Positions 702-38,607 of a DNA stretch of 39,667 nucleotides are shown here, in pieces (position 1 is the first letter of the stretch; every line of letters starts with the position of its first letter). The stretch is from the NCBI GenBank assembly GCA_002779355.1, contig PEWS01000027.1, positions 1 to 39,667 on the forward strand. The letters are read 5' to 3'. Position numbers and translations under genes: made by a program. The notes below the pieces were generated by a model. The model was not told the DNA's origin, ran no database searches, and worked only from the letters and a program-made list of their open reading frames with translations. The DNA is from Candidatus Nealsonbacteria bacterium CG07_land_8_20_14_0_80_39_13 (lineage in GTDB: Bacteria; Patescibacteriota; Minisyncoccia; Minisyncoccales; GCA-002779355).

Positions 702-1815
702 ATGGAAAATTTGAAAGAAAAACAAGAGAAACAGGAAGAGCTGCAAAAAAGAATCCTCGCGCTTGAGGACTGTCTTTGACGTTGAGAAAAAGAAAAACAT
801 GATAATTGAGATGGAAAAAGAAACCCTGTCTCCTAATTTTTGGGAGAGAAGGGAGGACGCAGTCAGGATCAGTCAGGAATTATCCCAGTTGAAAGAGGAT
901 GTGGCGGAAATGAATTGCCTGAAAGAGGATTTTGAGATAATAAGGGACTTAGGCGAAGAATTAGAGCTGGAAAAATTGGAAAAGAGAATAAAAGAAAAAG
1001 AAAAAATGCTTTTTCTTTCCGGAAAGTATGACAAGGGCAACGCCTTCCTGACTATTTATTCCGGGGCAGGCGGACAGGATGCGCAGGATTGGGTGGCTAT
1101 TCTGTTGAGAATGTATGAAAAATATTGTTCCCGCAAGAATTTTAAAGTAAAGATTTTGGATCAGGCCTTCGGAGAAGGAGGCGGGCCGGAAGGAAGAATT
1201 GGAGTAAAGCAAGTTTCTTTAGAAATTATCGGTCCATACGCCTACGGTCTTTTAAGAGGAGAAATGGGAGTTCATAGGTTGGTCAGGATTTCTCCTTTTT
1301 CTTCTAAATCTTTAAGGCACACCTCATTTACTTTAGTGGAGGTTTTGCCCGAAGTGAAGGAAGCGGGAGATATGATTGTTCCTCCGGATGATTTGAGAGT
1401 TGATCTTTATCGTTCTTCAGGGCCGGGCGGGCAGAATGTCAATAAAAGAGAGACAGCAGTCAGAATAACTCATTTGCCGACAGGAATTGTTGTCGCCTGC
1501 CAATCAGAAAGGTTGCAGGGTTCAAACAAACAGAAAGCGCTGGAAATTCTTTATTCAAAACTTTATGAATTGAATAAAGATAACAAAAAAAAGGAGATGT
1601 CTGAAATAAAGGGAGGAAGGATTTCAGCTGAATGGGGAAGCCAGATAAGATCTTATGTCGTTCATCCTTATAAAATGGTAAAAGATTTAAGGACGGATGT
1701 TGAGACTTCCGATGTGGATAAAATTTTAGACGGGGGACTTGATGATTTCATTGAAGCGGAACTTAAATTACCTGCCCGCAATGCTGAATATAGCGATGCA
1801 GGCGGGAAAAGCTAA
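702..1815 (+). CDS. prfB: Peptide chain release factor 2, made by +1 programmed frameshift (ORF0 702-776, then 778-1815)
   Basis: ORF0 reads MENLKEKQEKQEELQKRILALEDCL and ends at CTT TGA C (774-780), the classic RF2 shift site. The downstream frame carries the SPF and GGQ motifs (RISPFSS, SGPGGQNVNK). Confidence 0.93.
1771..1806 (+). repeat. GC-rich palindromic element, in-frame copy at the prfB C-terminus
   Basis: CCTGCCCGCAATGCT-GAATAT-AGCGATGCAGGCGGG. The arms pair, with wobbles and mismatches. It encodes PARNAEYSDAGG. Confidence 0.7.
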
Positions 1816-10713: not shown

Positions 10714-11595
10714 ATGGAAGAAGAAATAAAAGAAATATTAAAGGGAATTTATAAAGAAAGGCCAAAAGGGACATATTTCAGAAAATATGATTTTGGTATG
10801 GTTTTGGTTATCGGCGGAGGTAATTTTTATTCAGGGTCGCCGGCTTTATCGGCTATGGCAGCTTTGGAAACCGGAGCGGATATGACCAGGATCATTGCTC
10901 CAAAGAGAGCGGCTGATATTATCGCCGGTTTCTCGCCTGACTTGGCCGCTTACCCCTTGAAAGGGGATTATATTTCCAAATGCCATTTGACTGACTTGAT
11001 TTCAATGACTGAATCAGCCAAGGCTGTGTCAAGAGGAAACTTGTCAGTGGTCATCGGCGGAGGCATGGGCAGATCGCCGGAAACACAGGAAACAATCCTT
11101 GAATACATTTCAAAAGTTGACGTTCCGATGGTTATTGATGCTGACGCCATTTACGCCCTGAACAGCAAGCCGGAAGGAGTTAAATTAATAGCTGGAAAAG
11201 ATTTTTTGATCACGCCTCATAAGTACGAGTTTTTTGTATTAACAGGAAAAGATATTGAAGGTATTTCCCATGCCGATAAAGTGGAAGTTGTCAGGGAAGA
11301 AGCCGGTCGTCTCAAAACCAACATACTTCTCAAGGAAAGTCCGGATATAATTTCCAACGGGAAAGATGTTCTTTTGAATAAAGTCGGCAGTCCCTATATG
11401 AGCGTTGGCGGAACAGGAGATTCTTTAGCCGGAATTTGTGGCGCTTTGATGGCTAGAAGAATAAATCCTTTCAAGGCTGCTCAAATTGCTACTTATATCA
11501 ATGGCCGAGCCGGAGAAATCGCAGCTGAACGCAGAAAAGACAGCTTGAAAGCGACTGACGTCATATCCACCATCAACCAAGCCATCTTCTCGTAA
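10714..11595 (+). CDS. nnrD: NAD(P)H-hydrate dehydratase (YjeF C-terminal-type carbohydrate kinase)
   Basis: KYDFGMVLVIGGG, VIDADA, GGTGDSLAGICGALMA. Confidence 0.8.
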   Translation: MEEEIKEILKGIYKERPKGTYFRKYDFGMVLVIGGGNFYSGSPALSAMAALETGADMTRIIAPKRAADIIAGFSPDLAAYPLKGDYISKCHLTDLISMTESAKAVSRGNLSVVIGGGMGRSPETQETILEYISKVDVPMVIDADAIYALNSKPEGVKLIAGKDFLITPHKYEFFVLTGKDIEGISHADKVEVVREEAGRLKTNILLKESPDIISNGKDVLLNKVGSPYMSVGGTGDSLAGICGALMARRINPFKAAQIATYINGRAGEIAAERRKDSLKATDVISTINQAIFS

Positions 11596-11835
11596 TTTTC
11601 AATTTTTAATTTTCAATGAATTTTCAATTTTCCAATTTTCAAAAAATAATATCAATGCCAATTGGGATTTTGATTTTTTCAGGGATTTTTTTAATGACGA
11701 ATTGTGTTTATGCGGGCATGGATCATGGCTTGACGTGCCGGATATTAATTCCATAGAAGAACCAAAAATCCTCGATCAAATAATTTCCACTTTTAAGTTT
11801 TTGAAGTAAAAATTGAATTTTGGTGAAAAATTTGA

Positions 11836-12426: not shown

Positions 12427-12502
12427 AACAACATGAGGCCAGATGCTTTCTACGTTTAAATTTATTAAAAATTAAAAATTAAAAATTAAAAATTTTACGA
12501 AT

Positions 12503-13423
12503 ATGTACGATATTATAATTATTGGGGGAGGGCCGGCGGGAATAAACGCCGGAATATACGCAGCCAGATACAGATTAAAAACGCTTTTGATAACGGAAAA
12601 TTTCGGCGGACAGATAGTCTGGAAATCAGTTGATATAGAAAATTATCTCGGTTTTGGAAAAATTTCCAGTCCGGATTTAATTAAGAAATTCAGAGAACAT
12701 CTGAAGAATTTTGAAGTAGAAATTATGGAAGGCGATTCAGTAATAGGTGTTTCTAAGGGGGAAGCAGGGTTCCTTGTTAAAACGAAGAGCGGAAAGGATT
12801 TTGAAGGGAAAACAGCTATCGTCGCTTCAGGGGCAAGTCCTCGTCATTTGAATGTCGCCGGAGAAAAAGAATTTATCGGCAGAGGCGTGAGTTATTGCGC
12901 TACTTGCGATGCTGCTATGTTCAAAAATAAATCTGTTGCCGTAATCGGCGGAGGCAATGCCGGATTTGAAGCGGCTTTAGCTTTAAGCAAGTGGGCTGAC
13001 AAAATCTATATTTTGGAATTCGCTCCGACAATGCCGGCTGATGAAGCCAATAAATCAATGGCTGCTGAAACCGGGAAAATAGAGTTGATTGCCGGCGTCG
13101 CCTTGAAAGAAATTAAAGGAGCTCAATTTGTAAGTTCCATAAATTACGAAGACAGGGTTTCCAAGGAAATTAAAAGCCTTAACGTAGAAGGAGTTTTTAT
13201 TGAAATAGGGCATCAGCCGGCTAATGTTTTTGTTAAGGACTTGGTTGAATTCAATGAAAAAAGCGAGATAAAAGTTGACGATAATTTTATGTCTAAAACG
13301 CCGGGTTTTTTTGCCGCCGGGGACGTTAACAATACAAAATACAAGCAGATTATAGTCGCCGCCAGCGAGGGCGCTCAGGCGGCCTTATCGGCCTACGAAT
13401 ACCTCAGAACATATGGAAAATAA
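12503..13423 (+). CDS. trxB: Thioredoxin-disulfide reductase
   Basis: FAD site IIIGGGPAG, redox CATCDA, NADPH site VIGGGNAG, GDV. Confidence 0.92.
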   Translation: MYDIIIIGGGPAGINAGIYAARYRLKTLLITENFGGQIVWKSVDIENYLGFGKISSPDLIKKFREHLKNFEVEIMEGDSVIGVSKGEAGFLVKTKSGKDFEGKTAIVASGASPRHLNVAGEKEFIGRGVSYCATCDAAMFKNKSVAVIGGGNAGFEAALALSKWADKIYILEFAPTMPADEANKSMAAETGKIELIAGVALKEIKGAQFVSSINYEDRVSKEIKSLNVEGVFIEIGHQPANVFVKDLVEFNEKSEIKVDDNFMSKTPGFFAAGDVNNTKYKQIIVAASEGAQAALSAYEYLRTYGK

Positions 13424-19160: not shown

Positions 19161-20033
19161 ATGTTAAGTAAAGGGAAAGGTTTCACTATAATTGAACTTT
19201 TAGTCGTCATTGCCATCATCGGTTGCTTGTCCAGCATTGTTTTGGTTACCATGTCCGGCCAGAGGGAAAAGGGGAGAATTGCCGGCGCCTTGAAATTTAG
19301 CGATGGACTTATATATGGTCTTGGCGATGGCCTTGTCGGCAACTGGGATTTTAATGGGAATGTTGGCACTCTTGCTCCTCCCACTACTTTCTATGACTCT
19401 TCTGGCTATGGAAATAATTGTTCTATCTCTGGTCTCACGTATCTTACTCGAGAAAATAATGACATTCCTTGCTCTAATTGTAAATTAGGTCAATCATTGA
19501 CTTTTCCTGATCTGAATCCGACAATTGATTGCCGGAGTGGCGTAAGTATGGATATTTCTTCCGCCGTTACAGTTGAAGCGTGGATAAAGTCTACGAGCAA
19601 TACTGGCAGTATCATTGTTAAGGGAAGTGGCACTGCGATAAATTATGGCATGGATATTGGTAACGGCGGAAATAACGGGAAATTGAGATTTTTTGGTTAT
19701 GCGTCGGGGGGGGGGATAAAAGGAATATCTTCTGCAGGCGGTACCAAAATTAATGATGGAAAATGGCACCATATCGCAGGAACTTTTAATGGCGACAAGG
19801 ATTGGGTCATTTATGTTGACGGGAATAGCAATCAAACAAAAACAGAAGTGGCAAAAGTGACATTGGCAGTAACTACACAATCGTTGCAAATAGGAGCAGT
19901 CCAAGGGCTGGCACCATATTTTGTAGGCTCCATTGACGAAGTTAGGATTTATTCAAAATCGCTTACGGCCATGGAAATACAACAGCATTATGCCGAGGGA
20001 GCAGGAAGACATCAATTGGCCGAAGCCAATTGA
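19161..20033 (+). CDS. Type IV pilin-like protein with a LamG (concanavalin-like) domain
   Basis: Prepilin signal KGFTIIELLVVIAIIG. LamG_3-type C-terminus (GKWHHIAGTF, YVDG, IDEVRIYSKSLTAMEIQQHY). Confidence 0.85.
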   Translation: MLSKGKGFTIIELLVVIAIIGCLSSIVLVTMSGQREKGRIAGALKFSDGLIYGLGDGLVGNWDFNGNVGTLAPPTTFYDSSGYGNNCSISGLTYLTRENNDIPCSNCKLGQSLTFPDLNPTIDCRSGVSMDISSAVTVEAWIKSTSNTGSIIVKGSGTAINYGMDIGNGGNNGKLRFFGYASGGGIKGISSAGGTKINDGKWHHIAGTFNGDKDWVIYVDGNSNQTKTEVAKVTLAVTTQSLQIGAVQGLAPYFVGSIDEVRIYSKSLTAMEIQQHYAEGAGRHQLAEAN

Positions 20034-20075
20034 TGCTTCAATTTTCAATTTTCAATTTTTAATTTTTAATTTACA

Positions 20076-22079
20076 ATGATGGTTAAAAAGGAAGATTCAT
20101 TTTATCCGGGCAAGGAGTTTCAAAAAAGGGCTTGGGTAAAAAATAAATCCATTTATAAGGAAGCGGAAAAAAGTCCGATTAAATTTTGGGAGAAATTAGC
20201 CAAAGAACTTTTTTGGTTTAAGAAATGGAAGAAGGCATTTACTCACGACCCGAAGAAATTAAAGTTTCAATGGTTTTCCGGCGGAAAAATTAACATCACC
20301 GCTGATATTTTTGAAAACAATTTTCTCGGCTGGGATTCGGCTGAAAGCGGAATAAAAAACAAGCTGGCTTTGATTTGGGAACCGGAATCAACGGATGAGA
20401 AAGAGAGAAAATTTACCTATCAGGAATTATTTTCAGAAGTTAATCGTTTCGCCAACGCTCTTAAGAAAAGCGGGGTAAAGAAAGGCGATAGGGTGGGAAT
20501 ATACTTGCCGATGATTCCGGAGGCGGTGATTTCTATGCTTGCTTGCGCCAGAATAGGCGCTGTTCATGCTGTTGTTTTTTCCGCTTTTTCCGCAGAATCC
20601 TTAAGGGTTCGGCTTCAAGATACGAAAGCAAAAGTTTTAATTACTGTTGACGGTTATCATAGGAGAGGGAAAGTGGTTGACCTGAAGAAAAATGCTGATG
20701 AGGGAATTAAAGAGACAAGCATAGAAAAAATAATTATTTTCAAAAGAGCGGGGAATCCCGTTGACTGGAAGGATGGCAGGGATTTTTGGGCAAGCGAATT
20801 AACTAAGAATGAGAGCGATTATTGTAAACCGGCTATAATGGACGCTGAGGATTTGATGTTTATTCTTTACACCAGTGGCAGTACCGGCAAGCCAAAGGGT
20901 TGCGAGCATGTTTGTGGCGGTTATGCTGTTCAGTCATATTGGACAGGCAAATGGATATTTGATTTACATGGACCTGCCCGCAATGCTTCCGCCACAACTT
21001 CGCAGATGTTGGCGGATGCAGGCGGGGATGATATTTTTTGGTGCACAGCTGATATCGGCTGGGTGACAGGCCACACCTACGCCGTGTATTCTCCTTTGCT
21101 TAACGGAGCAACCTCTGTTATTTTTGAAGGCGCTCCTGATTGGCCGGGACCGGATAGGTGGGCTCAAATTATTGAGAAATACGGAATTACAGTTTTTTAT
21201 ACTGCGCCTACAGCTATCAGAATGTTTAAAAAGATGGGAGCGGAAATTATTAAAAAATACGGTTTTAAGACATTGCGGGTAATCGGTTCAGTAGGGGAAC
21301 CCATAGATGATACGGCTTGGAATTGGTATTTTGAAGAAGTTGGGAGAGGCAACTGTCCTCTGGTTGATACTTGGTGGCAGACGGAAACAGGGGGAATTTT
21401 GATCAGCTCTCTGCCCGGAGTCGGCCCCTTCAAGCCGTCTTTTACCGGCCGACCTTTTCCCGGATTAAAATTTGATATTTTGGATGACAATGGAAAGCCT
21501 GTTAAAACTGGAAAAGAGGGGAATTTGGTTTTATTCCCGCCCTTTTCCCCTTCGCTGTTGAGGGGAATTTATAAGAATTTTAAAAAATATAAGGAAACTT
21601 ATTGGAGTCAGTATGGAGGTAAAATATATGTTACTTCAGATACTGCTCTTAAAGATAAAAATGGTTTGATCAGAATAGTCGGCAGAGCCGATGACGTGAT
21701 TAAAGTGGCCGGGCATAGGATTACTACCGGTGAAATGGAGGCTGTAATTAATCGCTGTCCAGAAATAGCCGAGTGCGCAGTGATAGGAGTTTTTGATGAA
21801 ATAAAAGGTCAGGTTCCTGTAGTTTTTGCTGATATTAAGGGTGTGGAGAGAGATGTTGAAAAAATTAAGGAAGATATTGTCGTGCAAATACGGAAAGAAA
21901 TAGGGCCAATAGCGCTACCTAAGCAGGTCTACTTGGTTGACGAATTGCCAAAAACCCGTTCAGGCAAAATTATGCGCAGGATTTTGAGAAAATTATTTAC
22001 CGGAGAAGAATTAGGCGATTTATCCACTCTCTCAAATCCGGAAGCAGTAGAAGAAATCAGAAACCAAATAATTAAATAA
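20076..22079 (+). CDS. acs: Acetyl-CoA synthetase (AMP-forming)
   Basis: YTSGSTGKPKG, WCTADIGWVTGH, DTWWQTETGG, PKTRSGKIMRRILRK. Confidence 0.95.
   Translation: MMVKKEDSFYPGKEFQKRAWVKNKSIYKEAEKSPIKFWEKLAKELFWFKKWKKAFTHDPKKLKFQWFSGGKINITADIFENNFLGWDSAESGIKNKLALIWEPESTDEKERKFTYQELFSEVNRFANALKKSGVKKGDRVGIYLPMIPEAVISMLACARIGAVHAVVFSAFSAESLRVRLQDTKAKVLITVDGYHRRGKVVDLKKNADEGIKETSIEKIIIFKRAGNPVDWKDGRDFWASELTKNESDYCKPAIMDAEDLMFILYTSGSTGKPKGCEHVCGGYAVQSYWTGKWIFDLHGPARNASATTSQMLADAGGDDIFWCTADIGWVTGHTYAVYSPLLNGATSVIFEGAPDWPGPDRWAQIIEKYGITVFYTAPTAIRMFKKMGAEIIKKYGFKTLRVIGSVGEPIDDTAWNWYFEEVGRGNCPLVDTWWQTETGGILISSLPGVGPFKPSFTGRPFPGLKFDILDDNGKPVKTGKEGNLVLFPPFSPSLLRGIYKNFKKYKETYWSQYGGKIYVTSDTALKDKNGLIRIVGRADDVIKVAGHRITTGEMEAVINRCPEIAECAVIGVFDEIKGQVPVVFADIKGVERDVEKIKEDIVVQIRKEIGPIALPKQVYLVDELPKTRSGKIMRRILRKLFTGEELGDLSTLSNPEAVEEIRNQIIK
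20973..21027 (+). repeat. GC-rich palindromic element, long variant, in frame in acs
   Basis: CCTGCCCGCAATGCT-TCCGCCA..TGGCGGA-TGCAGGCGGGG. It encodes PARNASATTSQMLADAGG. Confidence 0.8.
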
Positions 22080-23050: not shown

Positions 23051-23308
23051 ATGTTCCAAGATTTTTTGACTTTTTATTTGAATAAAGCCAAATACGAGCT
23101 GATTGAAAACGGCAAGGTTTATTATGGGGAGATTTCCGAACTAAGAGGTGTTTGGGCAACAGGAAAAACTATCGAAGAATGCAGAAAGAATCTTTTAGAA
23201 ATTATTGAAGGATGGGTAATTTTGAGATTGAGAAAAAATTTATCGATTCCAAATTTTAAGATTCCTTACAAGAAAATTTCTTTTAACAGGGTTTATGCCA
23301 AAGCTTAA
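23051..23308 (+). CDS. hicB: HicB-family antitoxin
   Basis: YYGEISELRGVWATGKTIEECRKNLLEIIEGW matches the HicB/UPF0150 pattern. It overlaps the hicA start. Confidence 0.7.
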   Translation: MFQDFLTFYLNKAKYELIENGKVYYGEISELRGVWATGKTIEECRKNLLEIIEGWVILRLRKNLSIPNFKIPYKKISFNRVYAKA

Positions 23309-23516
23309 ACCAATTTCTTGGCGAGAATTAGTAAAATATCTGAAGGGGTTTGGTTTTGAGAGACCATATCAATCGGGGAAACATCCCTATATGGTTAATG
23401 GCGATCTAGTTTTAACCATTTCAAATCCTCACTCTAAGGATATCAGCCAAGATCTTCTTTCTAGAATTTTGAATCAAGCCGGAATCAGCAGAGAAGATTG
23501 GGAAATAAAGAAATAA
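23295..23516 (+). CDS. hicA: HicA-family mRNA interferase toxin
   Basis: ISWRELVKYLKGFGFE....GKHPYM pattern, 73 aa. Confidence 0.75.
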   Translation: MPKLKPISWRELVKYLKGFGFERPYQSGKHPYMVNGDLVLTISNPHSKDISQDLLSRILNQAGISREDWEIKK

Positions 23517-23529
23517 ATTTAAAAGAAAT

Positions 23530-25917
23530 ATGGAAAATCAAAAAGAACAAAAAAATATTTTGTGGTTTAGCGAGATATCTAAAAAAGATGGCGCTTTAGT
23601 CGGTGGGAAGAATGCTTCCTTGGGCGAAATGTTCAATCGGCTGATTGTCAAAAGGATAAGAGTGCCTAACGGCTTTTGTTTGACTTCAAAAGCTTATTGG
23701 TATTATTTGGACTCAAACGGAATTACCGGAAAAATAAAAGAGATTTTGGATAAATTCAATCCTAAGAGCATGGCCAGTTTGAAAAAAACAGGCGCCTCCA
23801 TCCGGGCGTTGATATTGGGCGGTAAATTTCCGAAGGATTTAGAGGATGAAATAATTGAAAGTTATAAAAAATTATCCGGAGAATACGGAGAGAAAAATAT
23901 GATCGTGGCTGTCCGTTCTTCAGCCACAGCCGAAGATTTGAAGGACGCCAGTTTTGCCGGCCAAATGGAATCATATTTAAATATTTCAGGGAAAGAAAGT
24001 CTGTTAAGAGCAATTAAAAATTGTACAGCTTCTTTATTTACTGACAGGGCCATAGCTTATCGCGAGGAAAAAGGCTTTGACCGTTTTAAGATAGCTTTAT
24101 CAGCCGGAGTTTTAAAGATGATAAGATCTGATTTAGCTTCTGCCGGCATAATGTTCACATTGGACACAGAAACAGGATTTAGAAATGTTGTCTCCATAAA
24201 CTCAATCTGGGGAGCGGGAGAGATGATCGTTAAGGGAAAAATAACTCCGGATCAATTTTACGTCTTCAAACCGACCCTTCAGCAGGCTCAAGGCTACAAG
24301 CCAATTATCTCCAGAAATTTAGGAAGAAAAGATAAGAAATATATATTTGCGGAACAGGGATTGAAAGAAGTGAAGGTTTCCAAAGAAGACGAGATGAGAT
24401 TTTCCGTTTCCGATGAGGATATTTTAACTTTGGCCAAATGGGCCATGCTGATAGAAGAGCATTACAATTTCCCTCAAGATATTGAATGGGCTAAGGATGG
24501 GAAAACAGGAGAGCTTTTTATAGTTCAGTCCCGGCCGGAAACAATTCATTCTCTGGAGAAAAAAAATTCTTACGAAGAATATAAAATAAGCCAGATCAAA
24601 GAGCCGATTTTGAACGGCATTGCTATTGGAAGTAAAATAGGGGAAGGAAGGGTTAGGGTAATTTCCGACGTTTCCAAAATAGGAGAATTTAAAAGAGGAG
24701 AGGTTTTGGTTACAAAAATGACTGACCCTGATTGGTGTCCTATCTTTCCTTTGGCATCAGCCATAATTACCGAAGAGGGCGGAGCCACTTGCCATGCCGC
24801 TATTGTCTCCAGGGAGATGGGCATTCCGGCAATGGTTGGAGTAAAGGGCGCCCTTAAAGCTTTGAAAACAGGGCAGACGGTTACGGTTGATTGCACCAGT
24901 AGCCGGGCCGGAAAAATATTTTTAGGGAAAATTCCTTATACGGTTAAAAAATATGACCTTGATAAATTGCCTCAATTGGAAACGAAAATAATGATAAATA
25001 TCGGCTCACCTGATTTGGCGTTTAAATATTCTTCTTTGCCGAACGAGGGCGTGGGATTGGCAAGGGAGGAGTTTATCATCGCTGAAAAAATAAAAATTCA
25101 TCCTTTAGCGCTCTATCATTTTAAAGAATTAAAGGATAAGAAGGCGAAGAAAATTATTGAAGAAATCACGGCTGGATATAAAGATAAGAAAAAATATTTT
25201 ATTGATAAATTAGCTGAAGGCGTTTCTCAAATCGCAGCCGCTTTTTATCCGAAAACAGTCATTGTCAGGTTTTCCGATTTTAAAACCAATGAATATAAAA
25301 ATTTAATCGGCGGAGAAATTTTTGAAAGAACCGATGAATCAAATCCAATGATGGGTTTCAGGGGCGCTTGCCGTTATATAGATAAGAACTATCAGCCGGC
25401 CTTTGAGATGGAATGCCAAGCGATTAAGAAAGCCAGAGAAGAGTTCGGATTGAAAAACATCACAGTGATGGTCCCTTTCTGCCGGACGCTTGAGGAGGGC
25501 AAGGCGGTCGTGGGATTAATTGAGAAGTTCGGCCTTGAAAGAGGGAAAGACGGTTTACAAGTCATTATGATGTGCGAGATTCCTTCCAATGTTATTTTGG
25601 CCGAGGAATTTTTAGAAATTTTTGACGGAATGTCCATCGGCTCCAATGATCTGACTCAATTGACTCTGGGATTGGACAGGGACAATAGCGGACTTGCCCA
25701 TATTGGAGATGAAAGGAATGAAGCGGTAAAAAGAATGATTGAGAGGGTAATTAAGGTCTGTATCTCCAAGAACAAGTATTGCGGGATTTGCGGAGACGCC
25801 CCTTCTTCTTTTCTGGATTTTGCCGATTTTTTAATAGAGAATAAAATTTCCTCCATCTCTCTTTCTCCTGACGCAGTCATCAAAACCATAATTTCTCTCT
25901 CTAAGAAGAATAATTAG
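23530..25917 (+). CDS. ppsA: Phosphoenolpyruvate synthase (pyruvate, water dikinase)
   Basis: N-terminal GGKNASLGEM, phospho-His region GGATCHAAIVSREMGIPA, and a C-terminal PEP-utilising TIM barrel (GSNDLTQL). Confidence 0.92.
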   Translation: MENQKEQKNILWFSEISKKDGALVGGKNASLGEMFNRLIVKRIRVPNGFCLTSKAYWYYLDSNGITGKIKEILDKFNPKSMASLKKTGASIRALILGGKFPKDLEDEIIESYKKLSGEYGEKNMIVAVRSSATAEDLKDASFAGQMESYLNISGKESLLRAIKNCTASLFTDRAIAYREEKGFDRFKIALSAGVLKMIRSDLASAGIMFTLDTETGFRNVVSINSIWGAGEMIVKGKITPDQFYVFKPTLQQAQGYKPIISRNLGRKDKKYIFAEQGLKEVKVSKEDEMRFSVSDEDILTLAKWAMLIEEHYNFPQDIEWAKDGKTGELFIVQSRPETIHSLEKKNSYEEYKISQIKEPILNGIAIGSKIGEGRVRVISDVSKIGEFKRGEVLVTKMTDPDWCPIFPLASAIITEEGGATCHAAIVSREMGIPAMVGVKGALKALKTGQTVTVDCTSSRAGKIFLGKIPYTVKKYDLDKLPQLETKIMINIGSPDLAFKYSSLPNEGVGLAREEFIIAEKIKIHPLALYHFKELKDKKAKKIIEEITAGYKDKKKYFIDKLAEGVSQIAAAFYPKTVIVRFSDFKTNEYKNLIGGEIFERTDESNPMMGFRGACRYIDKNYQPAFEMECQAIKKAREEFGLKNITVMVPFCRTLEEGKAVVGLIEKFGLERGKDGLQVIMMCEIPSNVILAEEFLEIFDGMSIGSNDLTQLTLGLDRDNSGLAHIGDERNEAVKRMIERVIKVCISKNKYCGICGDAPSSFLDFADFLIENKISSISLSPDAVIKTIISLSKKNN

Positions 25918-30015: not shown

Positions 30016-31140
30016 TTATTCTTCCTGCTCTTCGGCTGATTCCATGGCTTCTATAATGGGGTCAAGTCTTCCTTCCATTATCTCTTCAATGCCGTGGAAA
30101 GATTTTTTAATTCGGTGGTCGGTTACTCTGTCTTGAGGAAAATTGTAGGTTCTGTTTTTCTCCGCTCTTTTGGCCCTTCCTATTTGTCCTTTTCTGTCCC
30201 CGCCTAATTTTTGAGCCTCTTCCTCCTCTCTTATTTCAAGGAGGCGAGCTGATAGAACGCTCAAGGCGTTTTCTTTATTTTGGAGCTGGTTTCTTTCGGT
30301 CTGGGATTCAACGACCAATCCTGTCGGGATATGGACTATTCTTACAGCCGTCTCTCTTTTATTGACGTTTTGCCCGCCCGGTCCTGACGAACGGCAATAT
30401 TCAATTTTTAATTCATCAGGTTTAATTTCCAATTGAGTATTTTTCGGTTTCGGAAGAATGGCCACTGAAACGGTGGAAGTGTGTATTCTTCCGCTTTTTT
30501 CCGTTTCGGGAATTCTCTGGACTCTATGGACCCCGGACTCGTTTTTCATTTTAGAGAAAATATCGCCGTTCCCGTCCGCATCGCTATGCGAAGCGTTGCG
30601 GGTGGATTCCAGCTGAAATACGATTTCTTTAAATCCGCCAGTTTCAGTAGGGCTGGAATTAAGGATTTTTTGCCTCCAACCTTGCTGTTCCGCGAACCTT
30701 GAATACATCTTGAATAAATCTCCGACGAATAAAGCTGCTTCGTCTCCCCCTGCGCCGGCCCTGATTTCAACGATTATGTCTTGCGGTTCAGAGCTTTCTT
30801 TCTGGCCTTTGATTAATTTTTTTAATTCTTTTTCCAAGACCTCCTTTCTTTCCCTGAATTGAGTAATCTCAATTTCAGCCAAGGAGGATAATTCGGGGCC
30901 TTCTTTCCCATTCAGGATCGCCCTGTTTTCTTCAATTCTGTCGTCAATTTCTTTTATTTCTTTTTCTTTCTCAATTATTTTTTCAAGATAGCTTTTCCTT
31001 TTAGATAGTTCTTCAAATTTTTTCCAGCCCGCATCGCTACGCGAAGCGTTGCTGGCGGGCCAATCAGAAATCAGCTCAGGGTTGCTGAGCTGATTTAAAA
31101 TTTCTTTATATTCCCGCTGAATATCGCTTAGGTTATCCAT
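30016..31140 (-). CDS. prfA: Peptide chain release factor 1
   Basis: P-E-T tripeptide (RIPETEKSGRIHTS), GGQ (SGPGGQNVNK), and DHR near the C-terminus. Confidence 0.93.
   Translation of the reverse strand: MDNLSDIQREYKEILNQLSNPELISDWPASNASRSDAGWKKFEELSKRKSYLEKIIEKEKEIKEIDDRIEENRAILNGKEGPELSSLAEIEITQFRERKEVLEKELKKLIKGQKESSEPQDIIVEIRAGAGGDEAALFVGDLFKMYSRFAEQQGWRQKILNSSPTETGGFKEIVFQLESTRNASHSDADGNGDIFSKMKNESGVHRVQRIPETEKSGRIHTSTVSVAILPKPKNTQLEIKPDELKIEYCRSSGPGGQNVNKRETAVRIVHIPTGLVVESQTERNQLQNKENALSVLSARLLEIREEEEAQKLGGDRKGQIGRAKRAEKNRTYNFPQDRVTDHRIKKSFHGIEEIMEGRLDPIIEAMESAEEQEE
30571..30605 (-). repeat. GC-rich palindromic element, in-frame copy inside prfA
   Basis: On the coding strand: CCACCCGCAACGCTTCGCATAGCGATGCGGACGGG. 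It encodes TRNASHSDADG. Confidence 0.8.
31024..31062 (-). repeat. GC-rich palindromic element, in-frame copy near the prfA N-terminus
   Basis: On the coding strand: TGGCCCGCCAGCAACGCTTCGCGTAGCGATGCGGGCTGG. It encodes WPASNASRSDAGW. Confidence 0.8.
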
Positions 31141-31537: not shown

Positions 31538-32302
31538 ATGACCGAAGATAAAAAGAAGAATAAAATAAAAACAGCAGACGAAGCAAAGGAAGGACTTGAC
31601 TTTGAAGAATTAGTTAAGGCCGGTTTGTATTTTGGCCACAAAACTTCAAGCACTCATCCTAAGATGAAGCAATACATTGAATCGTCAAGGAATAGAATTC
31701 ATATTATTGATTTGGCGAAAACAGCGGAAAAATTAAAAGAAGTTCTTGATTTTATCGGCGATCTGGTTTCTCAAGGGAAAGAAATTCTTTTTGTCGGCAC
31801 CAAGATTCAGGTAAAAGATAAAATAAAAGAGGTGGCTGAAGAATGCCATCTTCCTTACGTCAATCAAAGATGGCTCGGAGGAACATTCACTAATTTCGAA
31901 ACAATCAAAAAGAGATTGGAATATTTCAGGAGTTTGGAAATGCAGAAGGCTTCAGGCGAGCTCCAAAAATACGTAAAGAAAGAAAGACTTAAGATTGACA
32001 GAGAAATAGAGGGGCTGAGGAAGAAATTCGGAGGCATTAAAAATTTGGAAAAACTTCCGACAGCTGTATTCGTTACAGATATGAAAGAAAACATCCTGGT
32101 TGTAAAGGAGGCCAGAGAGAAGGGGATAATAGTGATTGCTATCGCTGACACTAATGTTAACCCGGCGTTGGCGGATCATTTCATTCCCGCTAACGACGAC
32201 GCTATTTCTTCGTTAAATTATATTCTGGACAGAGTGAAGAAAGCAATTTTAGAAGCCAAACCCCAGCCAAAGGCCAGTCAGCCTCTGGCTGACAAAAAAT
32301 AA
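31538..32302 (+). CDS. rpsB: Ribosomal protein S2
   Basis: GLYFGHKTS..HPKM, ILFVGTK, VFVTD, AIADTN. Confidence 0.95.
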   Translation: MTEDKKKNKIKTADEAKEGLDFEELVKAGLYFGHKTSSTHPKMKQYIESSRNRIHIIDLAKTAEKLKEVLDFIGDLVSQGKEILFVGTKIQVKDKIKEVAEECHLPYVNQRWLGGTFTNFETIKKRLEYFRSLEMQKASGELQKYVKKERLKIDREIEGLRKKFGGIKNLEKLPTAVFVTDMKENILVVKEAREKGIIVIAIADTNVNPALADHFIPANDDAISSLNYILDRVKKAILEAKPQPKASQPLADKK

Positions 32303-33470: not shown

Positions 33471-34962
<1,492 letters not shown>

Positions 34963-35148: not shown

Positions 35149-35742
35149 ATGATTTTTTATAAAATTTTTTCTTATATATACAAAAGAGCGGCTCGGAGCA
35201 TGTGCCTGGACTGCAAGGATTTTATAAAGAATGGGGCGAAAATTCTTGATTTAGGTTGCGGTTCGGGAATAGCCGGAGATTATTTTAAAAAATTTTTTAA
35301 GGCCGAGGTTTTTGGGGTGGATGTAAAAAATAATAGGGTGGTTGATCTTCCCTTTAAAAAAATAGACGGGAAAAATCTTCCCTTTGATGATAATTCGTTT
35401 GACGCAGTTCTGATATGCTATGTTCTTCACCACGCCGAAGACCCCATCGCCGTTTTAAAAGAAGCGAGGAGGGTGGGGAAGGAAAGGATTGTTATTTACG
35501 AAGATATGGCTGACGGATTTTTTTCAAAATTATTCTGCCGTTTCCATGGATTAAGCTTTGATATTTTCTTTCAGGGATTTGTCGGCAAAAAGCGGGAAAA
35601 TCCGGAATATTTTTTTAAGGGGGAGAAAGAATGGCAGGGGATTTTTAAGGGATTGGGGCTGAAAGTTGTTTTTGAGAAAAGGATTTCGTTGCCGATTTCC
35701 CCGGTCGCCAAAAGAATTTTTATTTTAGATATCGTAAAATAA
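35149..35742 (+). CDS. Class I SAM-dependent methyltransferase
   Basis: Motif I ILDLGCGSGIAG and the post-I acidic residue; FDAVLICYVLHH. Confidence 0.8.
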   Translation: MIFYKIFSYIYKRAARSMCLDCKDFIKNGAKILDLGCGSGIAGDYFKKFFKAEVFGVDVKNNRVVDLPFKKIDGKNLPFDDNSFDAVLICYVLHHAEDPIAVLKEARRVGKERIVIYEDMADGFFSKLFCRFHGLSFDIFFQGFVGKKRENPEYFFKGEKEWQGIFKGLGLKVVFEKRISLPISPVAKRIFILDIVK

Positions 35743-35767: not shown

Positions 35768-35831
35768 GCGTGTGTAGCTTCGGCCTCGTCCAGAGGACGA
35801 TCAGCCTTTGGCTGAGGTTAGAGCGCGTCAC
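35768..35831 (+). pseudogene. Decayed duplicate of the 5' half of tRNA-Ile (nt 1-32), with 37 nt replacing 6 nt of the D loop
   Basis: GCGTGTGTAGCT + 37 nt + GTTAGAGCGCGTCAC, compared with the intact GCGCGTGTAGCT-CAGTTG-GTTAGAGCGCGTCAC at 36091-36123. Confidence 0.7.
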
Positions 35832-35839
35832 CTTTGGAT

Positions 35840-36100
35840 ATGTTCTGTGTGTATTTTTTGAAAAGCATTAAAAATGGTAAGATTTACGTAGGATTTACTT
35901 CTAAAAATATTGAGGTAAGGGTTGAAGAACATAATAGCGGTTCAAACGTTTTTACGAAAAACAATAAGCCATGGGTTTTGGTATATTATGAGATATTTAG
36001 TTGTGAAAAATGCGCTAGAGCGAGAGAGAAGTTTTTTAAATCGGGTATGGGTAAAAGATTAAAAAAGATAATTGTAGATAATTTTAATATGCGCGTGTAG
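35840..36100 (+). CDS. Small GIY-YIG nuclease family protein
   Basis: VYFLKS..GKIYVGFTSKNIEVRVEEHNSG is the GIY-YIG motif. The stop codon TAG lies inside the tRNA-Ile gene. The track start 35834 is TTG. Confidence 0.8.
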   Translation: MFCVYFLKSIKNGKIYVGFTSKNIEVRVEEHNSGSNVFTKNNKPWVLVYYEIFSCEKCARAREKFFKSGMGKRLKKIIVDNFNMRV

Positions 36101-36164
36101 CTCAGTTGGTTAGAGCGCGTCACTGATAATGACGAGGTCCGTGGTTCGAGTCCACGCTCGCGCA
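36091..36164 (+). tRNA. tRNA-Ile (anticodon GAU)
   Basis: GCGCGTG-TA-GCTC-AGTTGGTTA-GAGC-G-CGTCA-CTGATAA-TGACG-AGGTC-CGTGG-TTCGAGT-CCACG-CTCGCGC-A. Confidence 0.9.
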
Positions 36165-36243
36165 CTCTTTCACCTCGCTCTCTTGCCGTTATTCGGCAGG
36201 GGGAACGGAGTTTTGTTTTAAGGCGGTTTTTTGTTTGAAATAC

Positions 36244-36422: not shown

Positions 36423-36854
36423 AGAAGTTCCTTCTTAGTCAGGAGGATTTCAATGATTTTTCTAGATTTGAAGATGCAGAGAGCTGCATTTTCAAGGACG
36501 AAAAATTCCCGTGCGCCTTCACGGGATAGGTGTTTAAGGGAGCACGACAATAATTGTCCTCTGCCCCTATATTTCTAAGTTCGGAATTACATTATTAAAA
36601 AATTACGAATTTAGAAATGCTCCGGTCCCGCTGAAAGCGGGACGGGGGTTTAAAGAAAGAAGTCGGAAGCGCTTTCGCGACGGGGATATCTCTTTCCAGT
36701 TCTTCGCAAGAAGAACAATCTCTGTTACGAAAGCACCCCCGGCTTTTTTCAGTCCAGAGGACTATTCAGCCCAGAGAGCTTTCAAGTTGTAAATGTGTCA
36801 ATGAGGAGGTAAAATAGAAAAATAAGAACAATATTTAGAATATTTTTGAACTCT

Positions 36855-37814
36855 ATGAAAACTCGAAAGGAAGATAATATAATTTACCATGGTAGTAATT
36901 GGGTATTGGTTGAAACCCAAGATGATAATCTTTTTGATATATTGTACAAAGAAGGGTACGAGAGAGTGGTTTTGGTGAATCAATTGGGTGTGGACGGTAC
37001 ATTTGAATATATTATTGGCAAAAAAACAGAAAAAACGGATGATTTTCCGGTCGGCCCAGAAACCGAAGAAGGATCGATACTTTTCGAATTAAATAAATTA
37101 GAGATGGGTTGGGCTGGCAGTATTCAGTATGGTGGAGCGCCAATAAATACTGATGGTTCGAGATCATTGCTTACTCCGCAGATGGTCATCAGTGTTATTA
37201 ATAAAGTTGTCAATAAAAAGGATGAACAAAATTTTCTAATCGGCAAAGATCAACAATTTGAAATTGACCCGGAAAAATTATTCTCCAAAGAATCATCATG
37301 CTATCAAGTGGAAACAGATCGGCTGGGCAAAGTATCCTATGTAAACATAGATAACGCCGCTACAACTCCGCCTTTTATATCGGTGCAAAATGGCGTTAAT
37401 GATTATTTAAAGACTTATGGTTCAGTTCATCGTGGAGCTGGTACTAAATCAAAAATATCTACTGATATTTACGAACAAACACGGCAAGTCATTAAAAATT
37501 TTGTTGGGGCTCCGGAAAATTTTTATGTTCTTTTTTCCGGAAACACAACTGGAGCCATGAATAATGTAGCCTATTTTTTCTCATTTCTTGATGGAAAGGT
37601 GGCGGTATCGGAAATAGAGCATAGCTCATCTTGGTTGCCATGGATTAAAGCTGAAGGTGAAAGATCGTTGGGAGCAAATCGCGTTGATTTTGCACATGTG
37701 CATGAAACACAAGAAAAAATACAAGAAGCGGGTCGTGAAATGGTTTTGAGGTATCCACTCAATAGCGAAGGTGAGTTTGACCTCGCTGGCATTGAAGAAA
37801 TGCTAAAAAAATAA
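36855..37814 (+). CDS. Class V aminotransferase / cysteine desulfurase-like PLP enzyme, 5' fragment with ~150-aa N-terminal extension
   Basis: NIDNAATTPPF, SVHRGAG, FSGNTTGAMN, EIEHSS..PW. It ends at a TAA right after an A7 run. Confidence 0.75.
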   Translation: MKTRKEDNIIYHGSNWVLVETQDDNLFDILYKEGYERVVLVNQLGVDGTFEYIIGKKTEKTDDFPVGPETEEGSILFELNKLEMGWAGSIQYGGAPINTDGSRSLLTPQMVISVINKVVNKKDEQNFLIGKDQQFEIDPEKLFSKESSCYQVETDRLGKVSYVNIDNAATTPPFISVQNGVNDYLKTYGSVHRGAGTKSKISTDIYEQTRQVIKNFVGAPENFYVLFSGNTTGAMNNVAYFFSFLDGKVAVSEIEHSSSWLPWIKAEGERSLGANRVDFAHVHETQEKIQEAGREMVLRYPLNSEGEFDLAGIEEMLKK

Positions 37815-37833: not shown

Positions 37834-38607
37834 TTGACTGCCTCGTCAAATCTGACTGGTTATCGTCCAGATATTAAAAAAATTGGCGAACTTGTTCATA
37901 AATATGGAGCATACTATATTATCGATGCTTGCCAATTTTTGCAACACCACAAAGTTGATATGATGGAAATGGGAATAGACTTTCTGGCCGTTTTCGGACA
38001 CAAATTTTACGCGCCTTATGGTGGTGGTTTTCTTATTGGGCCAAAAAACTTTTTGGATGAATTTTTGCCGTATCAGATTGGCGGTGGCAACTTGCCCTAC
38101 ATTACAAGGGAGGGTGTGTTCTTGCGCTATAAAAATCAATTAGCGCATGATCCCGGTACACCAAACGCCGTTGGCGCTGTCTCTATGGCTATCGCGCTTA
38201 ATCAATTGAAAAAAATCGGAATCGAAAAAATTGAATCATATGAATCAAATTTAGCGAGAGAAGCATTTGACGTTTTGAAAAAAAACGAAAAGGTTCGTCT
38301 GCTTGTAAAGAGTAATCACTTAAGTACAGTAATACCTTTTATCATAGAAGGGCAGGATTCACAGATAGTTGCCGAACGCTTAAATAAAGAATTTGGAATA
38401 GGCGTTCGCGCTGGAAGTTTTTGCGTGTATGACGTGGTAAGAAATCTTTTGGGAATAGAGGACGAGCAGAAAATAATTGAGGCCGTTAATCATGGCGATA
38501 CCTCGCTTATACCAGGAATTATTCGGGCATCTTTTGCGCTTTGCAACTCAAGAAATGATGTAAAAAGATTTATTCAAGCAATAAATTGCGTTACTCAAAA
38601 TAATTAA
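37834..38607 (+). CDS. Class V aminotransferase-like PLP enzyme, 3' fragment (frame open from 37807)
   Basis: TASSNLTGY, IIDACQ, the PLP-lysine block FGHKFYAPYGGGFLIG, and VRAGSFC. Confidence 0.75.
   Translation: MTASSNLTGYRPDIKKIGELVHKYGAYYIIDACQFLQHHKVDMMEMGIDFLAVFGHKFYAPYGGGFLIGPKNFLDEFLPYQIGGGNLPYITREGVFLRYKNQLAHDPGTPNAVGAVSMAIALNQLKKIGIEKIESYESNLAREAFDVLKKNEKVRLLVKSNHLSTVIPFIIEGQDSQIVAERLNKEFGIGVRAGSFCVYDVVRNLLGIEDEQKIIEAVNHGDTSLIPGIIRASFALCNSRNDVKRFIQAINCVTQNN

Follow-up and report, generated by a model that had tools for sequence, protein, structure and literature searches.

The stretch of DNA analysed here (the window) comprises 39,667 nucleotides (nt) of contig PEWS01000027.1 (GenBank assembly GCA_002779355.1) from Candidatus Nealsonbacteria bacterium CG07_land_8_20_14_0_80_39_13, and contains an acs gene, encoding acetate-CoA ligase (Acs), that is interrupted in frame by 54 nt of GC-rich, hairpin-forming DNA. 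The contig also occurs in metagenome samples 3300005236 and 3300008003. This insert is most probably a copy of a non-autonomous mobile DNA hairpin, akin to repetitive extragenic palindromes (REPs) and the Rickettsia palindromic elements (RPEs), with a 36-nt core that consists of two 18-nt inverted halves. The near-identical 36-mer CCYGCCMGCAAYGCTTCGCRTAGCGATGCRGGCKGG and its enlarged forms were found in more than 240 copies in other genomes and metagenomes (two scans together), in addition to four in the window including that of acs. The interpretation of these copies as a selfish, translated hairpin repeat is well supported.

The acs insert spans positions 20973–21026 and reads CCTGCCCGCAATGCT TCCGCCACAACTTCGCAGATGTTGGCGGA TGCAGGCGGG. 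A preliminary description of this DNA had quoted the 54 nt correctly and placed their end at 21027; that base is the first of the following codon (GAT) and lies outside the insert. The insert is in frame in a 667-residue open reading frame (ORF; 20076–22079, plus strand), where it encodes residues 300–317, PARNASATTSQMLADAGG. Two features described earlier were reproduced, namely the high GC content (64.8%, compared to 41% in the remainder of the gene) and the inner 7-bp hairpin, formed by TCCGCCA and its exact reverse complement TGGCGGA. The predicted RNA fold has an energy of -29.7 kcal/mol (z = -2.98), which was equalled by none of 200 shuffled sequences, and the DNA fold has a z-score of -4.35.

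The 18 codons were correctly recognised as extra. None of the 119 best homologues (65–82% identity, mostly from Parcubacteria/Patescibacteria) has residues at this position, the insert-free proteins reading FD[LFM]H-x-DD[IV]FWCT, and the alignment with Salmonella Acs (PDB code 2P2F) opens an 18-residue gap between P297 and G298, at a turn. No homologous segment is present at this site in orthologues inside or outside the phylum. The Acs of the sister genome GCA_017973875.1 (locus L003), 82% identical, also lacks the copy and reads ..CAT AAA GAC GAT.. at the site. Within the cluster of Acs sequences of at least 90% identity, the identical insert is kept in all 13 of the 13 full-length members. 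In an AlphaFold2 model of Acs with a mean predicted local distance difference test (pLDDT) score of 74, residues 301–316 fall between helix 280–293 and strand 320–323, have pLDDT values below 50 and are without secondary structure, such that the insert is modelled as a disordered loop. As a separate observation on this protein, some Acs homologues from Patescibacteria (P0006, P0019, P0047, P0048, P0070, P0082, P0086, P0097, P0109 and P0117) carry a C-terminal extension of about 40 residues that is hydrophobic and transmembrane-looking (..GF.V..LD.LF.A.G..L..), and which is absent from the window protein.

Three 36-nt relatives of the insert are located in the window, one in prfB (release factor 2, RF2) and two in prfA (release factor 1, RF1; Table 1). 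As had been noticed earlier, they share one codon phase relative to their genes, and the window copies were matched by nhmmer with E-values of 5e-9 to 6e-12. A 15-nt arm pattern has four matches in the window, compared to 0.65 expected. All four copies are coding, and nhmmer detected none between the genes of the window. Compared to solved RF1 and RF2 structures, each of the prfA and prfB copies either corresponds to a gap or lies past the conserved C-terminus; in RF2, homology to the solved structures stops just ahead of the copy. The prfB gene itself starts at ATG 702 and contains a classical programmed +1 frameshift site, CTT TGA C, at 774–780, the listed ORF (763–1815) being only the post-shift body. 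Since prfB carries this site, UGA is a stop codon in this organism.

The wider family was collected in two scans. The species collection of GTDB (596 Gb) was searched with a degenerate 36-nt pattern, for which about 17 chance matches are expected from an information-content estimate made for this work; at least 120 loci match, and about 110 of those listed contain the complete element, including conserved arms outside the pattern. Metagenomes were searched with the arms of the variants V1 and V2 flanking a centre of 16–46 nt, which gave at least 119 enlarged elements. Among the GTDB matches listed there are 127 non-redundant 36-mers with 62 distinct sequences. V1 (CCTGCCCGCAATGCTTCGCATAGCGATGCAGGCGGG) makes up 32 identical copies of the 127, V2 (CCCGCCCGCAACGCTTCGCGTAGCGATGCGGGCGGG) is represented by 14, and a third variant, V3, reads CCCGCCAGC...GGGCTGG. 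V1 is found more often where loci are AT-rich and V2 where they are GC-rich, both variants occurring everywhere.

The hosts, as labelled by the titles of the records, include at least 12 lineages of Patescibacteria (Daviesbacteria, Nomurabacteria, Moranbacteria, Giovannonibacteria, Staskawiczbacteria, Berkelbacteria, Saccharibacteria, Levybacteria, Roizmanbacteria, Jorgensenbacteria, Portnoybacteria, Gribaldobacteria, Komeilibacteria and Buchananbacteria), as well as Verrucomicrobiota, Kiritimatiellia, and metagenome-assembled genomes (MAGs) labelled Bdellovibrionales and Gammaproteobacteria. A long-read Verrucomicrobiota MAG with contigs of 0.4–1.3 Mb has four loci, and one single-cell genome is among the hosts. 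By these labels, the element is not private to Nealsonbacteria, nor is it specific to the candidate phyla radiation (CPR). Copies are found in rpoB, gyrA, uvrC, the gene for the large subunit of ribonucleotide reductase (nrd), lepA, smc, class-I tRNA synthetase genes, rpoA, mnmA, ychF, and genes for a type IV secretion system coupling protein, a Ser/Thr kinase, another AMP-binding enzyme, RF1 and RF2. A known RNA family was considered and rejected: Rfam at the gathering threshold identifies only the 16S rRNA and three tRNAs in the window, and a perfect copy searched at E ≤10 gave weak chance matches, the best relevant one being COG2908 RNA at 10.8 bits compared to a cut-off of 58.7.

The housekeeping genes in which the copies are scattered are unrelated and the sites non-homologous, and comparison with the sister genome, in which neither the Acs copy nor the two RF1 copies are present, reveals exact empty sites. 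At RF1 site 1, where the sister prfA (L246) reads ..GATTGG^AAAAAA.., the window has exactly 36 extra nt with no duplication, within a 3-nt (TGG) ambiguity; at site 2 (..CTGGAA^AATGGC..) it likewise has exactly 36 extra nt and no duplication. Of 121 RF1 sequences, 20 have an occupied site 1, and the sequences closest to these 20 are mostly unoccupied. An RF1 with 62% identity (L247) contains the same V3 copy at site 1 as the window, while another (L248) contains two fresh tandem copies at site 2, where decayed, apparently internally deleted remnants such as PARPGG and SARAG also occur. This pattern indicates either re-insertion at hot spots or frequent precise loss. A single ancestral insertion at site 1 was rejected on the grounds that a distance tree does not group the occupied sequences as a clade, a result with which precise loss is still compatible.

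The conserved structure of the element is a pair of alternative hairpins. Mutual information is highest for position pairs 12–20, 7–34 and 3–30, followed by 16–26 and 17–25, and the covarying pairs fit two mutually exclusive folds. Fold I (positions 5–9 paired with 32–36, 12–14 with 28–30, and 16–19 with 23–26) leaves a free 4-nt 5' tail and is the minimum-free-energy structure of V1. Fold II (1–5 with 28–32, 7–9 with 23–25, and 11–14 with 18–21) is its mirror image, the respective pairings CCCGC (5–9)/GCGGG and CCTGC (1–5)/GCAGG being offset by 4 nt. Covariation is 0.174 for fold I (shuffled mean 0.099) and 0.210 for fold II (shuffled mean 0.132), with none of 500 shuffles as high for either fold and slid controls of at most 0.124; the copies are related, so these statistics are not probabilities. 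The individual pairs vary as CG (37), AU (6) and UA (4) at 7–34, as CG (29), UA (24) and GC (1) at 12–20, and as CG (25) and UA (25) at 3–30. Several stem positions were fixed by the search pattern; the covarying positions were free. The full-length palindrome was rejected as the conserved structure, with a covariation of 0.090 compared to a shuffled mean of 0.105, 497 of 500 shuffles as high, and slid controls no better than the structure. The outer arms of the insert, which had been described as pairing with each other, can do so energetically, but covariation across the family favours the pairing offset by 4 nt. The element begins with CCYG and ends with CKGG, and GTAG occurs internally and only in V2. 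On the simplest reading, both DNA strands could fold alike, each into a bulged hairpin that leaves its 5' tail (CCYG) unpaired.

All extra DNA in the enlarged forms (44–76 nt, compared to the 36-nt core) sits exactly at the centre of the dyad, GCTTCG^C[AG]TAGC. It consists of mini-hairpins of 16–18 nt, of relatives of 30–36 nt (other copies of the element among them), which give rise to 66–72-mers, or, in L071, of an 80-nt AT-rich segment. The Acs 54-mer is an enlarged form of the 36-nt core and not a separate element: it keeps family positions 1–17 and 25–36 and the outer architecture of fold I, with an 11-bp stem in place of the 4-bp apical stem. The sequence most similar to it is a 55-mer (L235) at a locus that is unrelated and apparently non-coding; this copy is identical at 50 of 54 positions, and the differences include a compensatory A-T to G-C change in the inner stem. 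Related inner stems are found in L235, L157 and L194. Because the L235 relative resides at an unrelated locus, the enlarged form is itself a propagating subtype. Derivation of the 54-mer from a 72-nt nested pair by loss of 18 nt was considered and set aside; it is possible but needs several deletions, whereas L235 shows the propagating subtype.

Both the frame and the length of the copies are constrained in coding DNA. Five of the six frames of the 36-mer are stop-free, and the sixth, which contains TAG, is not used. Among the enlarged forms listed, 90 of 119 have a length that is a multiple of three (72, 69, 54, 66, 48 and 45 nt). At loci below 45% GC, open frames of 150 codons or more contain 90 of the 142 copies, ORF membership being taken from stop-to-stop length, which is unreliable in high-GC loci. 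The frame CCT GCC CGC.., corresponding to PARNAS[HR]SDAGG, is used by 67 of these 90 copies (74%), compared to 20% expected under equal use of the five open frames. Copies with a length that is not a multiple of three number 10 outside long ORFs and two inside. The orientation of the copies tracks the gene and not the GC skew, with 7 of 9 doing so even where the gene opposes the skew; outside ORFs the preference is weak (24 versus 16). That orientation follows the gene points to selection on the product and not to replication-coupled insertion, which was rejected on the basis of this test. The dispersed sites, the exact 36-nt empty sites, the stop-free frames, the lengths in multiples of three and the modelled loop in Acs uphold the earlier proposal that selfish palindromic DNA is tolerated inside ORFs. 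The two checks named with that proposal, for a homologous Acs segment in orthologues and for further copies of the element, both came out in its favour.

A mechanism consistent with these observations can be proposed. Copies in ORFs would be read through and translated as a flexible loop of 12–18 residues, and the surviving copies would be those that selection tolerates, in permissive loops and at termini, mostly in the one frame that yields a small, polar, Pro/Gly-bounded peptide. The active form may be single-stranded DNA, both strands of which would fold alike into a bulged hairpin with the free 4-nt 5' tail (CCYG), with the shape being kept by compensatory changes. An enzyme that recognises this structure could move the element in trans. 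By analogy with REPs, it might be of the HUH/Y1 kind, such as a REP-associated tyrosine transposase (RAYT) or an IS200/IS605-like enzyme, although this assignment is doubtful. A broader proposal is put forward tentatively: the element may represent an unrecognised, cross-phylum, self-nesting 36-nt single-strand hairpin, with strands that fold alike and carry a 4-nt 5' tail, which is active in Patescibacteria, Verrucomicrobiota and others, is moved by a possibly new structure-specific enzyme, and is a major source of loop insertions in the essential proteins of ultra-small bacteria, with an evolved, benign 'linker' frame.

Several points weigh against a selfish, translated hairpin. No transposase or other mobilising gene was found, the ORFs between neighbouring copies being mnmA, ychF, rpoA, aminoacyl-tRNA synthetase and amylase genes. 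No RAYT is present between neighbouring copies or among the window ORFs scanned. The 1.68 Mb of fetched loci contain no long element with the same ends, and a search for orphan half-sites gave nothing convincing. The flanks have no conserved target motif, only a purine-rich composition of Lys and Glu codons, and the element has no terminal GTAG/CGTC tag. The 36-mer has no megablast match among PLSDB plasmids or INPHARED phages; in IMG/VR, three contigs contain the element, next to ParB and Mu-like head proteins and with no transposase. The relatedness of the copies and the stop-to-stop definition of ORFs, given above, limit the covariation and frame statistics respectively, and the translation of ORF copies as a peptide loop is judged from sequence constraints. 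Moreover, near-identity across phyla is hard to square with purely vertical, neutral junk; it calls for activity that is ongoing, for horizontal spread, or for selection that acts on the sequence itself.

Alternatively, the hairpin might be kept because it serves the host as DNA or as RNA (for instance as a signal for recombination or repair, a site for the nucleoid or gyrase, a hairpin for mRNA stability or ribosome pausing, or a tag for DNA uptake or recognition), with its spread being secondary, for example by gene conversion. Near-identical sequences across phyla, with V1 identical in 32 of the 127 copies listed, would fit such a role, as would the maintenance of two folds by compensatory changes and the greater frequency of V1, the AT-rich variant, in AT-rich loci while pairing stays. 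However, the positions are non-homologous, close relatives are without copies, there is no positional logic with respect to gene starts or ends, various frames and both orientations occur, and decayed or partly deleted copies (PARPGG-type remnants) exist. Furthermore, a host function is not needed to explain conservation if a mobilising enzyme reads the structure. This alternative is considered unlikely.

[quoted passage not shown] The halves are indeed inverted repeats (13 of 18 positions identical in V1), and extra DNA is always found exactly between them, including the 80-nt AT-rich cargo in L071. A MITE is nevertheless disfavoured because no target-site duplication is seen, either at three comparisons of empty and filled sites or at the nested junctions (TTCG^CRT), and because covariation is absent from the TIR register (i:37-i) and present in the offset hairpin registers. 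Additionally, no full-length element was found in the fetched loci, and this possibility is regarded as decidedly improbable.

A GC-rich hairpin in an AT-rich gene, with a stable predicted RNA fold, also resembles the byp elements of mitochondria, and the insert might accordingly be missing from the mature protein through removal at the RNA level or programmed translational bypassing, as in T4 gene 60. Keeping the frame is not needed under such a scheme, yet the ORF copies are stop-free, have lengths in multiples of three and are dominated by one frame, the TAG-containing frame is unused, and the flanks contain no pair of take-off and landing codons or splice-like motif, which makes removal or bypassing very improbable. 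Lastly, an ancestral or adaptive lineage-specific Acs loop with a chance likeness to prfA and prfB, or an assembly artefact, for which the identical insert in all 13 members of the Acs cluster could be cited, is refuted for practical purposes: the insert is missing at 82% identity and beyond, other frames are used too, and independent assemblies (short-read, long-read and single-cell) have the same DNA inside unrelated genes and between genes, on contigs that number in the hundreds.

Other inserted repeats were observed in the same genes and elsewhere in the window. The window has a second family of GC-rich hairpins (CCAGCCAAAGGC..GCCTYTGGCTGG), at 32262–32294 and 35790–35819, in frame at the rpsB C-terminus (..KPQPKASQPLADKK, up to the stop codon) and near an ORF for a GIY-YIG nuclease. 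This second family also forms the insert VSAQGGPAFGW in the Acs of the sister genome (L003, GCA_017973875.1), and PASAKATAGK inserts at RF1 site 1 of other genomes may belong to it. Other Patescibacteria have a third in-frame repeat in their RF1, located downstream of site 1 by a few residues and made up of one to three tandem copies of a 48-nt unit encoding G[DN]ESKDSSSRFAGARV (L249, 3001–4176; proteins P0143, P0173, P0176, P0210, P0211, P0222, P0246 and P0250). In many other Acs proteins of Patescibacteria (P0010, P0060, P0069, P0018, P0097, P0114 and others), sporadic short inserts in which Pro, Ala, Arg, Gly and Ser abound (TPLNPRKARCSPKANNLTGS, RTMPRSARQNLDSSLRSEF and the SGQVG type are examples) occur at varied positions, which suggests that several such element families exist.

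The copies, their parts and their host genes are listed in Table 1. Directly upstream of the acs start codon lies one of three AT-rich intergenic repeats of the AATTTTCAATTTTTAATTTT type, found in both orientations (11594–11642, 12458–12505 and 20027–20079); the one at acs may be a promoter or UP-like element. Between acs and a gene resembling those of phosphoenolpyruvate synthase and pyruvate phosphate dikinase is a toxin-antitoxin pair of HicB-like (UPF0150) and HicA proteins (23051–23530); in the sister genome, the HicA/HicB pair adjoins prfA instead. The 16S rRNA gene (33471–34961) is followed by ORFs for an S-adenosylmethionine-dependent methyltransferase (35149–35742) and the GIY-YIG nuclease (35834–36100), the latter abutting tRNA-Ile (36091–36165); there is no 23S gene in the window. 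A class-V aminotransferase gene (cysteine desulfurase-like) is split by TAA TAA into two ORFs (36846–37814 and 37834–38607), the first of which has about 166 unmatched N-terminal residues.

Table 1. Copies of the hairpin element in the window, with their parts and host genes.
Feature	Position	Strand	Basis
Enlarged 54-nt hairpin element, in frame in acs (codons 300–317)	20973..21026	+	Sequence, folding, absence in homologues
5' arm of the acs element, family positions 1–17, CCTGCCCGCAATGCTTC	20973..20989	+	nhmmer match to model; identical to prfB copy
Inner hairpin of the acs element, TCCGCCACAACTTCGCAGATGTTGGCGGA, replacing the 4-bp apical stem of the 36-mer	20988..21016	+	Folding; unique in window
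3' arm of the acs element, family positions 25–36, GATGCAGGCGGG	21015..21026	+	nhmmer match
acs (acetate-CoA ligase), host gene	20076..22079	+	Pfam ACAS_N, AMP-binding, AMP-binding_C; PDB 2P2F E = 1e-169
36-nt copy at the very end of the prfB C-terminus (PARNAEYSDAGG), two codons ahead of the stop; arms perfect, loop altered (GAATAT)	1771..1806	+	nhmmer, arm match
36-nt copy in prfA after ..ELISDW (PASNASRSDAGW; site 1), variant CCCGCCAGC..GCTGG	31024..31059	-	nhmmer, sister empty site
Diverged 36-nt copy in prfA between ..FQLE and NGD.. (STRNASHSDADG, (S)TRNASHSDADG; site 2)	30571..30606	-	nhmmer, sister empty site
prfB (RF2), host gene, with +1 frameshift site CTTTGAC at 774	702..1815	+	Sequence, profile match
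prfA (RF1), host gene with two copies	30016..31140	-	Sequence, profile match

In-frame palindromic DNA has hitherto been seen as an oddity found in Rickettsia and in a handful of genomes with many REPs. What is surprising in the present case is that the sequence is nearly identical from phylum to phylum, that the two offset folds mirror each other, that copies nest in one another at the dyad, and that one 'linker' frame is strongly preferred in essential genes. If the interpretation as a mobile, translated hairpin is correct, the element would account for part of the unexplained short insertions that hamper alignment and annotation of CPR proteins, and would provide a natural experiment on which loops of essential proteins tolerate 12–24 extra residues. 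It would also offer a marker for strain tracking, call for caution with gene callers and structure predictors, and sharply define, as bait in the search for the mobilising enzyme, a substrate made of DNA (a bulged hairpin that has a 5' tail and takes insertions at its dyad), a question that is equally open for RPEs and many REPs.

The ends of IS200/IS605 elements, like the substrates of RAYTs, are imperfect single-strand hairpins in which the bulge is conserved and a 5' tetranucleotide stays unpaired, and are inserted without target duplication. The element resembles them in its bulged hairpin, unpaired 5' tetranucleotide and lack of target duplication, and differs in that no associated HUH gene was found and that it shows neither a conserved target tetranucleotide nor a replication-strand bias. 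In contrast to the bypass elements (gene 60 and byp), its copies in ORFs are stop-free, frame-biased and multiples of three in length. In the searchable literature, no occurrence of the element's sequence or peptide strings was found, nor any description of palindromic, in-frame, intragenic or REP-type repeats in CPR genomes; other papers may exist.

REPs of the GTAG/CGTC type have intragenic cases in Opitutus terrae and, as RPE-4 and RPE-6, in R. conorii (Di Nocera et al. 2013, PMC3733652). Like the element, they are imperfect, GC-rich palindromes of 20–40 bp with bulges and G-T pairs that are present in many copies as singles, dimers and clusters and insert into palindromes; intragenic REPs encode 7–30 residues in genes for repair, RNA and translation functions, and Verrucomicrobia are hosts of both (PMC3733652). 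Unlike REPs, the element is without terminal GTAG/CGTC and has a free CCYG tail; moreover, REPs are mainly extragenic, downstream of genes, whereas the element is mostly intragenic in low-GC genomes (90 of 142 copies). None of the REP-encoded peptides in Additional file 3 of Di Nocera et al. (2013) matches it. The GC clusters of yeast mitochondria (GC42; PMC4478555) are likewise GC-rich hairpins of about 18–48 nt in AT-rich genomes, with stems conserved over loops, units that merge and nest, an occasional copy in a coding gene (var1) and, as for the element, an unknown mechanism. These clusters are, however, organellar, mostly intergenic and flanked by AG/ACT direct repeats (PMC4478555), whereas the element is bacterial, mostly coding, and shows no duplication.

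The closest parallel in behaviour is with the RPEs (Ogata et al. 2000, 2002), which, according to PMC10969869, are classically about 100–150 bp in size and confined to Rickettsia. That source describes dispersed palindromes, in frame in housekeeping genes including those for translation and DNA repair, that add a peptide absent from orthologues and have no known transposase, features that the element shares, its added peptide being a predicted one; the preliminary comparison with RPEs is supported in this respect. The element forms two offset hairpins instead of a perfect palindrome and is far shorter than classical RPEs. It further differs in its 36-nt core, its near-identical occurrence in several phyla, its nesting at the centre and its 74% preference for one frame, the distinction being drawn on size and host. 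The element appears to be an undescribed relative of the protein-coding palindromes of Rickettsia. In-frame palindromes have precedent; what is new is a very short, cross-phylum, intragenic palindromic repeat of the REP/RPE kind.

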